IMG/VR virus record: IMGVR_UViG_2695420859_000010
Source: a virus
Lineage: Duplodnaviria > Heunggongvirae > Uroviricota > Caudoviricetes
Length of the DNA: 18,376 nt
Direction: 5' to 3' (one strand)
Positions 1,033 through 5,230 of the stretch are shown in pieces. The number at the start of each line of letters is the position of its first letter. Within the stretch, counting starts at the first letter, position 1. The translations under genes were made by a program, and so were the position numbers. Below the pieces are notes generated by a model. It was not told the origin of the DNA. It was given only the letters and a program-made list of their open reading frames with translations, and did no database searches.

Positions 1033-1502
1033 ACATAAACCGAATGCTTTCCGCGTTTATCGTTATTCTGCTGGTGGCCTGTGGTGCGCTGTGGATGGCA
1101 ACAGACCATTACCGTGATAACGCGATTACCTACAAAGCGCAGCGCGATAACAAAGCCAGTGAACTGAAGCTGGCGAACGCAACCATTACTGATATGCAGG
1201 TGCGCCAGCGCGATGTTGCTGCGCTCGATGCAAAATACTCGAGGGAATTAGCCGATGCGAGAGCTGAAAATGAAACTCTTCGCGCTGACGTTGCCGCTGG
1301 TCGTAAGCGCCTGCGGATCAACGCCACCTGTCCAGGCTCCGTGCGTGAAGCCCCCACCACCTCCGGCGTGGATAATGCAACCGGCCCCCGACTGGCAGAC
1401 ACCGCTGAACGGGATTATTTCACCCTCAGAGAGCGGCTGATGACGATGCACAAGCAACTGGAAGGGGCACAGGAATATATCCGTACTCAGTGCCTGAAAT
1501 AA
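1029..1502 (+). CDS. Rz: Rz i-spanin (inner-membrane spanin subunit)
   Basis: 157-aa ORF with N-terminal TM segment then a coiled-coil periplasmic domain; the [14 protein letters not shown] and [15 protein letters not shown] motifs match lambda Rz. GTG start at 1029; an ATG at 1044 is an alternative. Confidence 0.85.
1255..1440 (+). CDS. Rz1: Rz1 o-spanin, outer-membrane lipoprotein embedded in Rz in the +1 frame
   Basis: Signal peptide with lipobox (LPLVVSAC), then a proline-rich mature region ([26 protein letters not shown]) very close to lambda Rz1. Lies wholly inside Rz in another frame. Confidence 0.8.
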
Positions 1503-1852
1503 GTTTTGTTGATGCGCCGTATCGTCGCTGTATTCCCTCATTAACAGAGACCGCAGCCCGACAGGGAGACTCCTCTGCGCGAGTGTGCGGGGATAATCAA
1601 AAACGATACACACCGGGGTTTACCGTGTTAACGGAGCGCGGCGTTGTCCCCTCATAGTCGCCTGTCCGGTGCGATGGTGGAAGAAGCCGGATGTTTATCA
1701 CTATTAATTGATGACACAGAAATGGATTCATTGAATTTCAGCACGTTTTTGTATTCGTGTTATTGAACATCTGTTTATTTTACTTTTAACATATTGATAA
1801 TAAAAAGAGCTGTAAATCTTTAGATGAGTCGATTTTGTCCGGGGAAGTTCAA

Positions 1853-1993
1853 ATGGATTTTATGCTGACGGTTTCTGGTGTGGTTATCCTGTCCATTGCT
1901 TATACTGCAGATAAATATGGCTGCCATTTGTTATCACGTATTGGCGCTTATTGTTCGTTGATGCTGATTTTCTCGTCGCTTTTTTTTGAGTAA
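1853..1993 (+). CDS. Hypothetical 46-aa hydrophobic peptide in AT-rich moron
   Basis: ATG at 1853 with GGGGAAG a few nt upstream. Translation MDFMLTVSGVVILSIAYTADKYGCHLLSRIGAYCSLMLIFSSLFFE has two hydrophobic segments. Lies in a segment far more AT-rich than its flanks. No recognised homologue. Confidence 0.25.
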   Translation: MDFMLTVSGVVILSIAYTADKYGCHLLSRIGAYCSLMLIFSSLFFE

Positions 1994-2125
1994 GTTATAT
2001 TAATTATAACAAATAATTTTCTGTGTTATTTTTTCAGGCTATCCCGTCAGAGGGGAAGCCTGTACTGCCGGGGAGCGAATGGAAAACTGATGTGTCCGGT
2101 AACTGCGTGTTCTGTGAACACCATG

Positions 2126-2311
2126 TTACTTAATTATGTAATTCATACCCGAACTCTCTGTTGACAGCCTTCTTCTGCAGGCTTCAATAACCCACGCTGA
2201 AAAGTTACTGGACCCTTTATGCTCAAGGGCGATGTTGATCTGTTCAATCATGTGATTGGGGAAACGGATATTGCGGGTTGTGGTTCTGCGGGTCCGGTTT
2301 TTCGATGACAT
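2126..2311 (-). CDS. DUF3950-like small DNA-binding protein, probable ribbon-helix-helix fold (YlcI-like)
   Basis: Minus-strand ORF starting at the internal ATG (MSSKNRTRRTTTRNIRFPNHMIEQINIALEHKGSSNFSAWVIEACRRRL...). Basic N-terminus, short beta-strand and two helices typical of Arc/CopG-like proteins. I recall similar small proteins next to the terminase genes in DLP12-type prophages. Only minus-strand gene in the window. Confidence 0.65.
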   Translation of the reverse strand: MSSKNRTRRTTTRNIRFPNHMIEQINIALEHKGSSNFSAWVIEACRRRLSTESSGMNYIIK

Positions 2312-2352
2312 ATTTATTTCCTTTACTGATTGCCATATGACGGGGATTTTAC

Positions 2353-2718
2353 ATGGCTGAGCTTCGTACACTCCAGAGCAGAATCAAAACTCTGAACACC
2401 CGACGGGTGAATATTCTGAAGGGGGAACAGCGTCGTGTCAGTGGCAGTGCACGTGTTTCCCTCAAGCGTCATATCTGGCTCAGGGATGCCGGGCAGTGCT
2501 GTCTCTGTGGTCGTGTGGTTGACCTCTGTGACAGTGAACTCGATCACCGCATTGCACTTCAGTTCGGTGGTGGTAATGAGGAGACGAATCTCTGGACGCT
2601 CTGTACCGAATGCCATCGCCAGAAGTCAGTCAGTGAAACGGCGAGTGGTATGCCGGACCCGACGCTGCCGGAGGTGTCCGGAGGTCATGGCAGGGCAGAC
2701 GATATCATCGGACTGTGA
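2353..2718 (+). CDS. HNH endonuclease (terminase-associated)
   Basis: 121-aa ORF with Cys pairs and the HNH core (CCLCGRVVDLCDSELDHRIALQFGGGNEETNLWTLCTECHRQK). Directly upstream of the terminase genes, as in HK97-like cos phages. Confidence 0.85.
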   Translation: MAELRTLQSRIKTLNTRRVNILKGEQRRVSGSARVSLKRHIWLRDAGQCCLCGRVVDLCDSELDHRIALQFGGGNEETNLWTLCTECHRQKSVSETASGMPDPTLPEVSGGHGRADDIIGL

Positions 2719-2808
2719 TCCGCCCCGGGGGGGGGATCATCCGGCGAAAAAAACGATCGCCCCGGACACCGCCCCCCGTCTCATGCAGAGAAAAAATTCC
2801 TGTTTCAG

Positions 2809-2936
2809 GCCAGTTAACATGTTAACTGGCTGCCCGGGCATTTTTTCGGTTTTTATCTTTATTATTCAGTTTGTTGTGCGAAAAAAATGTTAACTGGCTT
2901 TTTCAGCAAATGTTAACCAGGCAGCAGTTAACATTT
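2809..2936. promoter_or_regulatory. Array of ATGTTAAC half-sites: a perfect 22-bp palindrome plus three further copies; candidate terminase small-subunit binding sites (cosB-like) or operator
   Basis: GCCAGTTAACATGTTAACTGGC at 2809-2830 is its own reverse complement. Further copies at 2887-2898 (ATGTTAACTGGC), 2910-2919 and 2925-2934, the last two forming AAATGTTAAC-N9-GTTAACATTT. AT-rich tract between them. Function is inferred from position between HNH and TerS. Confidence 0.4.
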
Positions 2937-3008
2937 GCGGCATGAGACGCCGGGAAAAATGGGCTGAACCATACCCGGCTGAGTGCGTTATGGACCCGGG
3001 AGGAGGCT

Positions 3009-3572
3009 GTGCTGACAACGCAAAAACGAAAATTTGCGCTGGCGCTCATGTCCGGGAAAAACAAAACAGCGTCAGCCATTGCCGCCGGTTATTCGGCGAA
3101 GACCGCCAGGGTTAAAGGCTCGCAGCTGGCAAAAGATCCGGAGGTGCTCGCGTTTATAGCCCGTAAACAGTGCGAAACGGTGGAGATGGATGAGGTTCCT
3201 GTTTACCGGCAGAAAAAATCAGAGCAGGAGGATAAACCCCGTCGCCGTGAGGTGGCTGCAATACCACAGCCGGACGAAAACAATCCGGAGATGCCTCCGC
3301 CCGCGGTGATATCTCATGGTATTGAATATATGGAGGATGGTCTTCCCGATCCGGTGAAAGCTATGGGGCAGATCCTGGTGGAAAACCTGATAATTGACCC
3401 GAAACTGGCACTGGATGCGGCCTGGCGACTGGCGCAGTTCACACACCATAAAAAAGGCGATGCCGGTAAAAAATCGGCAAAAGGTGATGCCGCGAAAAAA
3501 GCGGCTAACCGTTTTGCGGTGCCACCACCTCCCCGACTGGTGGTGAATAACCAGAATGAGGAAAGCGGATGA
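3009..3572 (+). CDS. Terminase small subunit (P27-family-like)
   Basis: 187-aa ORF, GTG start after GGGAGGAGG. N-terminal HTH-like region (KRKFALALMSGKNKTASAIAAGYSAKTARVKGSQLAKDPEV) typical of phage small terminases. Stop overlaps the TerL start (ATGA). Confidence 0.8.
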   Translation: MLTTQKRKFALALMSGKNKTASAIAAGYSAKTARVKGSQLAKDPEVLAFIARKQCETVEMDEVPVYRQKKSEQEDKPRRREVAAIPQPDENNPEMPPPAVISHGIEYMEDGLPDPVKAMGQILVENLIIDPKLALDAAWRLAQFTHHKKGDAGKKSAKGDAAKKAANRFAVPPPPRLVVNNQNEESG

Positions 3573-5230
3573 TACCTGTATGGAGCACGGCATGTCCGGA
3601 CTGGGCAGAGCGCCTGAAAAAGGGACTGTCGATTATTCCGGCTCCGATTTATCCGGACCAGGCTGCACATGCCCTGGCGATTTTTAAACAACTGCGAATT
3701 GTGGATGCACCGGGTAGCCCGACATTCGGGGAGTCCTGTGCACCGTGGGTGTTTGACCTGGTGGCGGCCCTGTTTGGCTCCTACGATGCGCAGACCGGTG
3801 TTCGCCATATCAAGGAAGTGTTTATCCTTATCCCCAAGAAAAACAGTAAGTCCACGCTGGCCGCGGGGATCATGATGACGGCGCTGTTACTGAACTGGCG
3901 GCAGGCGGCGGGCTACACCATTCTGGCCCCGACCGTGGAGGTGGCGGCTAACGCCTTCAACCCTGCCCGGGATATGGTACGACGGGACGATGATCTGGAT
4001 GACCTCTGTCAGGTGCAGACACATATCCGGACCATCACCCATCGGGTGACGGACACCACCCTGAAGGTGGTGGCAGCCGATCCGAATACGGTGTCCGGTA
4101 TCAAGTCCGTGGGGACACTGATTGATGAACTGTGGCTGTTTGGCAAGCAGTACAAAGCGGAAGACATGCTACGTGAAGCCATCGGCGGGCTTGCCTCCCG
4201 TCCGGAAGGATTTGTGGTGTACACAACCACCCAGTCGAATGAACCGCCTGCCGGGGTGTTCAGACAGAAACTGCAGTATGCCCGGGATGTCCGTGACGGC
4301 AAAATTCATGATCCGCACTTTCTGCCGGTGATTTTTGAGCATCCTCCTGAAATGGTGGAAAGCGGGGCTCACCTGCTGATGGAAAACCTCGCCATGGTCA
4401 ATCCGAATCTCGGTTATTCGGTGGATGAGGCTTTTCTGTACCGGGAGTACCGTAAAGCCCGGGAGGCTGGTGAGGAAGCATTTCGTGGCTTCATGTCAAA
4501 ACACGCCAATGTGGAAATCGGTCTTGCCCTGCGTTCTGACCGCTGGGCGGGCGCGGATTTCTGGGAGCAGCAGGGCAGGCGCGTCAGCCTGGACGATATC
4601 CTGCAGCGCGCTGATGTGGTGACGGTGGGGATTGACGGCGGGGGCCTGGATGATCTGCTGGGAATGTACGTGACTGGCCGTGACAGGGAAACCCGCGAAT
4701 GGCTGGGCTGGGGCCATGCCTGGGTGCATGAAACCGCGGTGGTCAGACGGAAGAGTGAGGCATCCCGGTTTCAGGATTTTGTGGCCTGTGGAGACATGAC
4801 GATTGTCCGTCGGGTCGGGGATGACACGGCGGAAGTGGCGGAGTATGTGCGTCGTATTCATGAGGCTGAGTTACTGGATCATATCGGTATTGACCCGTCA
4901 GGTGTGGGGCAGATTCTGGATTCACTGGCGGAAGCCGGGATCCCCGATGAGAGTGTGGTGGGGATAAGCCAGGGCTGGAAGCTGGGCGGGGCCATCAAAA
5001 CCACCGAGCGCAAACTGGCTGAGGGAGTGCTGGTGCATGGTGGTCAGCCACTGATGGCCTGGTGCGTTGGCAATGCCCGGGTGGAGCCTAAAGGTAACGC
5101 CATTCTTATCACCAAACAGGCCAGTGGACGGGGAAAAATTGACCCGCTGATGGCGCTGTTCAATGCGGTCTCCCTGATGTCCCTTAACCCGGAACCGAAA
5201 AAGAAAGAATATGTGGTTTTTTTCATATAA
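3569..5230 (+). CDS. Terminase large subunit
   Basis: 553-aa ORF with a Walker-A-like ATPase segment (ILIPKKNSKSTLAAG) and a C-terminal nuclease-like region; translationally coupled to TerS. Confidence 0.9.
   Translation: MIPVWSTACPDWAERLKKGLSIIPAPIYPDQAAHALAIFKQLRIVDAPGSPTFGESCAPWVFDLVAALFGSYDAQTGVRHIKEVFILIPKKNSKSTLAAGIMMTALLLNWRQAAGYTILAPTVEVAANAFNPARDMVRRDDDLDDLCQVQTHIRTITHRVTDTTLKVVAADPNTVSGIKSVGTLIDELWLFGKQYKAEDMLREAIGGLASRPEGFVVYTTTQSNEPPAGVFRQKLQYARDVRDGKIHDPHFLPVIFEHPPEMVESGAHLLMENLAMVNPNLGYSVDEAFLYREYRKAREAGEEAFRGFMSKHANVEIGLALRSDRWAGADFWEQQGRRVSLDDILQRADVVTVGIDGGGLDDLLGMYVTGRDRETREWLGWGHAWVHETAVVRRKSEASRFQDFVACGDMTIVRRVGDDTAEVAEYVRRIHEAELLDHIGIDPSGVGQILDSLAEAGIPDESVVGISQGWKLGGAIKTTERKLAEGVLVHGGQPLMAWCVGNARVEPKGNAILITKQASGRGKIDPLMALFNAVSLMSLNPEPKKKEYVVFFI

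Follow-up and report, generated by a model that had tools for sequence, protein, structure and literature searches.

What does a single gene do that is read against the whole late operon of a lambdoid prophage? The question is posed by a stretch of 18,376 nucleotides from a virus of the Caudoviricetes (IMG/VR record IMGVR_UViG_2695420859_000010), called the window below. It is the late region of a lambdoid prophage, with lysozyme, Rz, an AT-rich island, ylcI, an HNH endonuclease gene, terS, terL and the capsid, portal and tail genes, and all of its genes lie on the plus strand except ylcI. For this gene, a member of the DUF3950 family, a first-pass annotation made from the letters alone had proposed a small dimeric DNA-binding regulator. 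The reading that we favour, with a probability of roughly one half, is that YlcI is an Arc/Mnt-like ribbon-helix-helix (RHH) DNA-binding regulator encoded by a cos-side accessory gene that is read against the late operon.

Identification of ylcI and its family

The list of open reading frames (ORFs) of the window contained a minus-strand ORF of 81 aa at 2126..2371 with a GTG start. When family members were aligned, all homologues were found to start with MS(S/T)KNRT, and a Shine-Dalgarno sequence, AAAGGAAA (2317..2324, minus strand), was read off the DNA 7 nt 5' of the ATG at 2311-2309. Because the homologues begin in this way and AAAGGAAA precedes ATG 2311, the GTG start at 2371 was discarded and the coding sequence (CDS) was placed at 2126-2311 on the minus strand, ending with the TAA at 2128-2126. 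It encodes 61 aa, MSSKNRTRRTTTRNIRFPNHMIEQINIALEHKGSSNFSAWVIEACRRRLSTESSGMNYIIK, and is backed by translation, Pfam, NCBIfam, RefSeq identity and the substitution pattern given below. The span of 2126-2352 proposed in the first-pass annotation was right at the stop end, but it ran on to position 2352, immediately 5' of the HNH ATG at 2353, and so took in the intergenic spacer.

The protein matched Pfam PF13132 (DUF3950) with an E value of 8.4e-20 and 70.8 bits (cutoff 25) and NCBIfam NF041551 (YlcI_YnfO_N) with 35.1 bits (cutoff 30); as both scores exceed the curated cutoffs, the earlier assignment to DUF3950 was confirmed. It also matched PHROG 949 (E 7e-32), for which PHROG gives the function as unknown. 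An identical protein, WP_032202852.1, is annotated in RefSeq as 'YlcI/YnfO family protein' in genome NZ_CP148374.1, which showed 99.5% identity to the window over a 1.6-kb query around ylcI. The gene is already annotated as a member of a known, uncharacterised family, and the finding re-discovers a prophage gene that is very common and has no known function. No experiments on any YlcI/YnfO member were found in the searchable literature.

The gene had been singled out as the only convincing one on the minus strand, and the RefSeq annotation of the collinear 18 kb of NZ_CP148374.1 agrees, with 1 of 26 CDS on the minus strand; the six longest remaining minus-strand ORFs of the window had no Pfam match. 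The same annotation shows ylcI opposed to the lysis-HNH-terminase-head gene string. The distance of 41 bp reported between the divergent start codons of ylcI and the HNH gene proved exact (2312..2352). Both ribosome-binding sites lie in this spacer, which has no room for a whole promoter.

Over codons 1 to 50, the comparison with the lambda, DLP12 and Qin copies gave approximately 22 synonymous and 6.5 non-synonymous differences. The ratio of non-synonymous to synonymous substitution rates (dN/dS) was 0.036-0.040, with a dS of about 1.5-1.6 at which synonymous sites are saturated; the lambda copy alone gave 22.5 synonymous and 6.5 non-synonymous differences and a dN/dS of 0.036. Judged by these substitution counts, the ylcI-type ORF is a genuine protein gene under strong purifying selection.

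The YlcI/YnfO family is narrow but real, with 102 cluster representatives at 50% identity among 1.84 billion proteins. Its members have a size of about 60-80 aa and keep a core of K/R-x-I-R-F-P ... N-F-S-A-W-V-x-E/D-A-C down to 34-45% identity. In the family alignment, residues I15, R16, I25, F37, V41 and C45 were invariant and F17, N36, S38, W40 and A44 near-invariant, while the sequence was unconserved beyond approximately residue 50, leaving a variable C-terminal tail.

Predicted fold and proposed function of YlcI

A monomer model was built with AlphaFold2 (AF2) from an alignment of 18 sequences and had a mean pLDDT (per-residue confidence score) of 71.5. It contained an extended segment at residues 14-18 and helices at 19-32 and 37-55, and the conserved residues I15, R16, F17, N36, F37, S38, W40, V41, A44 and C45 mapped to the strand and the second helix (helix B). 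Foldseek returned mostly Arc, NikR, MazE, ParD and HicB structures, the best of them no better than E 0.8, and the closest structural neighbours were the RHH antitoxins TacA2, CopA_SO, VapB12, MazE9, ParD and HicB. A weak PHROG match to 'HicB-like' (E 0.003) was also obtained. The small RHH-type fold put forward by the first-pass annotation is thus probably the best structural reading, given the AF2 model and its Foldseek neighbours. The P22 repressors Arc and Mnt resemble YlcI in size, in the basic N-terminal arm, in the motif x-N-x-R-(aromatic)-P and in the two helices. They differ in their location in immI and in having known operators, and neither in sequence nor by profile is YlcI significantly similar to them. 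By inspection and weak scores, the RNIRFP/FNLRWP pattern, followed by a pair of amphipathic helices, agrees with a protein of the Arc/Mnt type.

On this reading, YlcI would most likely form an Arc/Mnt-like RHH dimer. Residues 4-13 would be its basic N-terminal arm, rich in Thr and Arg, and RNIRFP (13-18) its beta-strand, with N14 and R16 as base readers; two helices would follow, A at 19-32 and B at 37-50, the latter containing NFSAWVIEAC, and then a short variable tail. Expressed from a weak promoter of its own, apart from the late transcript, this small regulator would bind DNA sequence-specifically. Its target would not be the GTTAAC palindromes described below but more likely a site common to lambda-type and HK97-type prophages, or a site in the host.

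Several results weigh against this reading. DSSP assigned no beta-strand in the AF2 monomer; because the RHH strand pairs only in the dimer, a strandless result is expected for a monomer model. No RHH family of Pfam was matched at E values up to 1 by any of the 18 family members, searches of the Protein Data Bank with the single sequence and with the profile returned nothing relevant, and an hhalign comparison with Arc, which aligned RNIRFP with FNLRWP, covered 23 columns at a probability of 2%. No operator-like repeat was conserved beside ylcI, the flanks being wholly different between the two classes of prophage, window-type and lambda-type. A promoter scan returned 4 sites against 2.3 expected in shuffled sequences, and the sole match upstream of ylcI, at 2441-2413, is therefore not significant; it is a sigma-70-like CTGACA-17-CAGAAT (2413..2441, minus strand, 9 of 12 positions) inside the HNH ORF and is a candidate only. 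Upstream of the DLP12 and lambda copies, no consensus-like promoter was found on the ylcI strand. With these points taken into account, the RHH assignment of YlcI, which comes from the structural model, is likely although unestablished.

Position of ylcI-type genes in lambdoid phages

Of 5426 complete E. coli genomes, 1929 contained a match to the 1.6-kb region around ylcI, the median number of places per genome being two; many Stx-converting phages matched it as well. In several O26/O111-type genomes (e.g. NZ_CP012693.1 and NZ_CP027599.1) the match to window positions 1500-3100 was split in two by IS600, and these insertions fall in the ylcI-HNH-terS neighbourhood.

E. coli K-12 carries two members, YlcI in DLP12 (b4589) and YnfO in Qin (b4533), whose first 50 residues are approximately 88% identical to the window protein (6-7 of 50 differ), with the common core IRFPN...NFSAWVIEACRRRL. 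Both genes are divergent from the Nu1-like nohD/nohA across cos, and their orientation is that of the window gene, facing away from cos and the gene for the small terminase and opposed to the lysis genes. The window differs from them in having an HNH gene between ylcI and cos and a terminase of the Terminase_2/HK97-like type rather than a Nu1-like one; in upstream DNA and in C-terminal tail, too, the K-12 copies are unrelated to the window copy.

In lambda (NC_001416), tblastn detected an intact YlcI/YnfO ORF of 64 aa at 48109-48303 on the minus strand (positions 2710-2904 of our lambda locus L005), with 80% amino acid identity to the window protein and identical to K-12 YlcI across the first 50 residues. 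No feature is annotated over 48109-48303 in the lambda reference record. The ORF lies 199 bp from the right terminus, and no other inward-reading ORF is placed nearer to it; it differs from the window copy in having no HNH gene upstream. Upstream of it are the cos-proximal right end (cosQ) and cosN. The right end of lambda is the DNA end that enters the cell first. This cos-adjacent gene, strongly constrained and present in lambda too, has apparently never been examined experimentally.

A lysis-to-cos/terS location on the opposite strand was seen in the window, DLP12, Qin, lambda and JLK-2012, and in the 14 linear lambdoid records listed the match ended 191-509 bp from the right terminus. As DLP12, Qin, lambda and the linear lambdoid records share this right-end placement, position is the family's constant feature among lambdoids: at the right end by cos it is the final gene to read inward, with any terminase type. 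In the window class the HNH gene separates ylcI from cos, so that ylcI is next to last at the right end. DNA homology between the window and lambda classes starts exactly at the ATG and stops near codon 50, and neither the upstream nor the downstream flanks are shared. Distant family members occur in non-phage settings, one after a TonB-dependent receptor gene and another near a fimbrial usher.

The lambda ylcI-type ORF is neighboured by lambdap79 (NC_001416 47738-47944). A 2026 preprint reports this gene to be the trigger of the 'Vulcan' NADase defence, with escapers deleting lambdap79 through recombination with Qin (bioRxiv 10.64898/2026.09.04.749371). In view of these escapers, the right-end accessory block is an active hotspot of recombination and defence sensing.

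The palindrome array and the cos region

The first-pass annotation had offered the palindromes at 2800-2940 as a possible target of the protein. Between the HNH gene and terS, five palindromic ATGTTAAC motifs (2809..2938) mark a presumed cos/TerS-recognition region, TerS being the small terminase subunit. All five occurrences in the window lie within 2813-2934, whereas 0.29 were expected, and the array is preceded by G- and C-tracts at 2719-2780 (CCGCCCCGGGGGGGG ... CCGCCCCCCG). Among the fetched loci, the array was present only in those with the HNH and Terminase_2 module (L001, L002, L006 and L010). The loci of lambda, DLP12 and Qin lack it, although their YlcI proteins share an identical TTTRNIRFPN segment, which makes the array unlikely as the YlcI target. 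In addition, a satellite protein with a TerS-type helix-turn-helix (HTH), described below, is itself preceded by GTTTAACAC/GTTAACAC repeats. Since the array tracks the terminase module and such repeats precede the satellite gene with the TerS-type HTH, it is assigned to the small terminase and cos and not to YlcI. By this sequence comparison, the array at 2809-2938 most probably belongs to TerS and cos of an HK97-like packaging module, and its link with ylcI can be dropped.

Expression of ylcI

The gene had also been proposed to be expressed in the lysogen and silenced in lytic growth by late transcripts reading through from the lysis genes. In lambda, late transcription is established to cross the Rz-to-cos region. 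A CRISPR interference (CRISPRi) screen treats the lambda late transcript as one unit of 27 genes, and lambdap79, between Rz and cos, scored as essential in it yet is known to be dispensable (PMC10695390). We infer that this CRISPRi essentiality reflects polarity. For MG1655, ExcludonFinder is reported to list ybcW-ylcI as a convergent transcriptional overlap (excludon) in at least 50% of RNA-seq samples (PMC12288877), which lends indirect support to transcription of the K-12 homologue outside lytic growth.

The closest parallel is bor of lambda, which shares the Rz-cos neighbourhood and the orientation antisense to the late transcript and lies approximately 1.4 kb from the ylcI-type ORF in both lambda and DLP12. 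Among the few lambda genes that lysogens express is bor (PMC7067206). Its product differs from YlcI in being an outer-membrane lipoprotein with a shown phenotype, whereas YlcI is a predicted cytoplasmic RHH-like protein, and the window has no bor. By analogy with bor, expression of ylcI in the lysogen with silencing by late read-through is reasonable and plausible. The supplements of the O157 Sakai RIBOseq and SMRT-Cappable-seq papers contained no mention of the gene.

As the 41-bp spacer holds both ribosome-binding sites, any promoter of ylcI must overlap the 5' coding region of the HNH gene. If the 2441-2413 site were used, the transcript would have a leader of about 95 nt that runs antisense to the 5' end and ribosome-binding site of the HNH gene, and such a divergent overlap might also damp leaky HNH expression.

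DUF3950 domains in phage satellites

DUF3950 was also found in phage satellites. A capsid-encoding satellite of approximately 9 kb was observed in locus L019 (NZ_CP027459.1 3698000-3727000) at about 14787-23608, and also in L006-L009. It splits terL into a 5' and a 3' piece, and the prophage that hosts it is 95% identical to window positions 2157-3849. The junction between int and the terL fragment was repeated in independent assemblies. An insertion of the L006 satellite in terS was considered and discarded, as blastn and RefSeq annotation place the insertion in terL. The satellite carries int, an AlpA-like HTH gene, two DUF3950 genes, an Icd-like gene, DUF4222, a primase gene, a terS of its own and a major capsid protein gene.

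In two diverged satellites (L006-L009 and L017), the DUF3950 genes lie between int/AlpA-like and a divergent Icd-primase operon. Upstream of the 60-aa DUF3950 gene of L006, two perfect 12-bp palindromes, TGGTACGTACCA, are located 33 bp apart and bracket a TATAAT; judged by this layout of palindromes and TATAAT, it is a classic autoregulated arrangement. Both satellites also contain a second DUF3950 domain fused to the N-terminal HTH of TerS in an intact protein of 120-129 aa (L006 6001-6363, P0203; L017 4714-5103, P0188), which PGAP calls as two pseudogene fragments. The HTH of P0203 shares 66% identity with the window TerS (residues 2-54), a closer match than the satellite's own TerS. The fusion may compete for the cos-region repeats of the helper, and it leaves a packaging link for DUF3950 open.

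Taken with the non-phage contexts, the satellites fit a generic small DNA-binding and dimerisation module used in regulatory positions. DUF3950 at a satellite regulatory switch and in a fusion with a helper-like TerS HTH is a concrete, testable lead on the role of the domain. A more far-reaching proposal, which we hold to be quite improbable, is that ylcI is a core accessory gene which has been overlooked in the lambda family and encodes an RHH module acting in satellite or cos-proximal control with cross-talk to satellite DUF3950 proteins; this cross-talk could proceed through heterodimers or shared operators. If it were true, cross-talk between helper and satellite might time satellite induction or hinder helper packaging.

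Alternative explanations for ylcI

The fusion and the position by cos bear on the possibility that YlcI is a packaging accessory that binds DNA near cos, or works together with TerS, and thereby tunes how cos is recognised or cleaved, for instance by silencing the prophage cos or aiding termination. Cos-adjacent placement is kept across unrelated terminases, Nu1-like with nohA/nohD and in lambda versus Terminase_2 with HNH, the joining of DUF3950 to a TerS HTH in two diverged satellites is a fusion of the Rosetta-stone type, and the likeness of the P0203 HTH to the window TerS points the same way. However, the GTTAAC repeats follow the terminase type and not YlcI, ylcI is opposed to the packaging operon, no flanking DNA is common to both classes, and the distant members outside phage contexts (TonB-dependent receptor, fimbrial usher) weaken the packaging explanation. 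Lambda genetics is not known to have needed a factor from the right-end region, and in cis minimal cos fragments function in its absence, which also counts against a packaging role. With the repeats and the flanks on the other side, such a role is unlikely.

That the nearest structural neighbours of the YlcI model are RHH antitoxins (TacA, ParD, CopA_SO, MazE9, VapB12 and the C-terminal domain of HicB) suggests instead an orphan antitoxin-like or protein-binding module, which would neutralise or sense a partner such as a toxin, a defence protein or, through heterodimerisation, a satellite DUF3950 regulator, and would not have DNA as its main target. The ydfO gene (DUF1398) located 57 bp downstream of Qin ynfO on the same strand would agree with this, as would the DUF3950 paralogues at the regulatory switch of satellites inserted in window-type prophages. 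Unlike the antitoxins, YlcI lacks both a cognate toxin gene and a conserved tail for toxin binding, its C-terminal tail being short and unconserved; PADLOC gave no match for YlcI, and in the window no co-directional ORF lies 3' of ylcI but 132 bp of non-coding DNA and then a convergent ORF. A type II toxin-antitoxin module was discarded, there being no adjacent co-transcribed toxin gene 3' of 2126, and we regard an orphan module as rather doubtful. That ylcI has no function as a protein gene, being a chance ORF or a region kept for antisense RNA or cis-acting DNA, is barely credible: the ORF is very short, is unannotated in the lambda reference and lacks a clear promoter, but the dN/dS of 0.036 against lambda speaks against a chance ORF, a good Shine-Dalgarno sequence precedes the ATG, and the IRFP...NFSAWV.EAC core common to 102 representatives argues against non-coding DNA. 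No Rfam family was matched anywhere in the window, and a tRNA scan of the whole window likewise gave no match. The Arc/Mnt-like regulator remains the favoured reading.

Other features of the window

The HNH endonuclease gene divergent from ylcI (2353..2718, plus strand) was identified by Pfam (HNH, E 2e-6), PHROG 589 and RefSeq, and the small terminase subunit of the Terminase_2 type (3009..3572, plus strand) by Pfam, PHROG and RefSeq. The HNH gene is placed as HK97 gp74 is, adjoining cos and the genes for the terminase (PMC3592412, PMC11331095).

On the 3' side of ylcI, a strongly hydrophobic ORF of 46 aa (1853..1993, plus strand), which reads MDFMLTVSGVVILSIAYTADKYGCHLLSRIGAYCSLMLIFSSLFFE, is convergent with ylcI at a distance of 132 bp. 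It corresponds to the RefSeq hypothetical protein WP_000347013.1 and had no family match in Pfam, PHROG, NCBIfam or PADLOC. The GC content was 33-41% across 1601-2100, within an AT-rich island at about 1650-2100, and the ORF looks like a moron-type insertion. Between the two convergent genes, just 3' of the ylcI stop codon, an inverted repeat GTGTTC-TGT-GAACAC (2107..2121) forms a weak terminator-like element.

The portal region of the window consists of two overlapping ORFs, 7443-8807 and 8804-9865. In the closely related RefSeq genome a single feature, annotated as 'portal protein, frameshifted', takes their place and exceeds them in length by 162 nt. This may point to a defective prophage or to a portal region prone to insertions and deletions.
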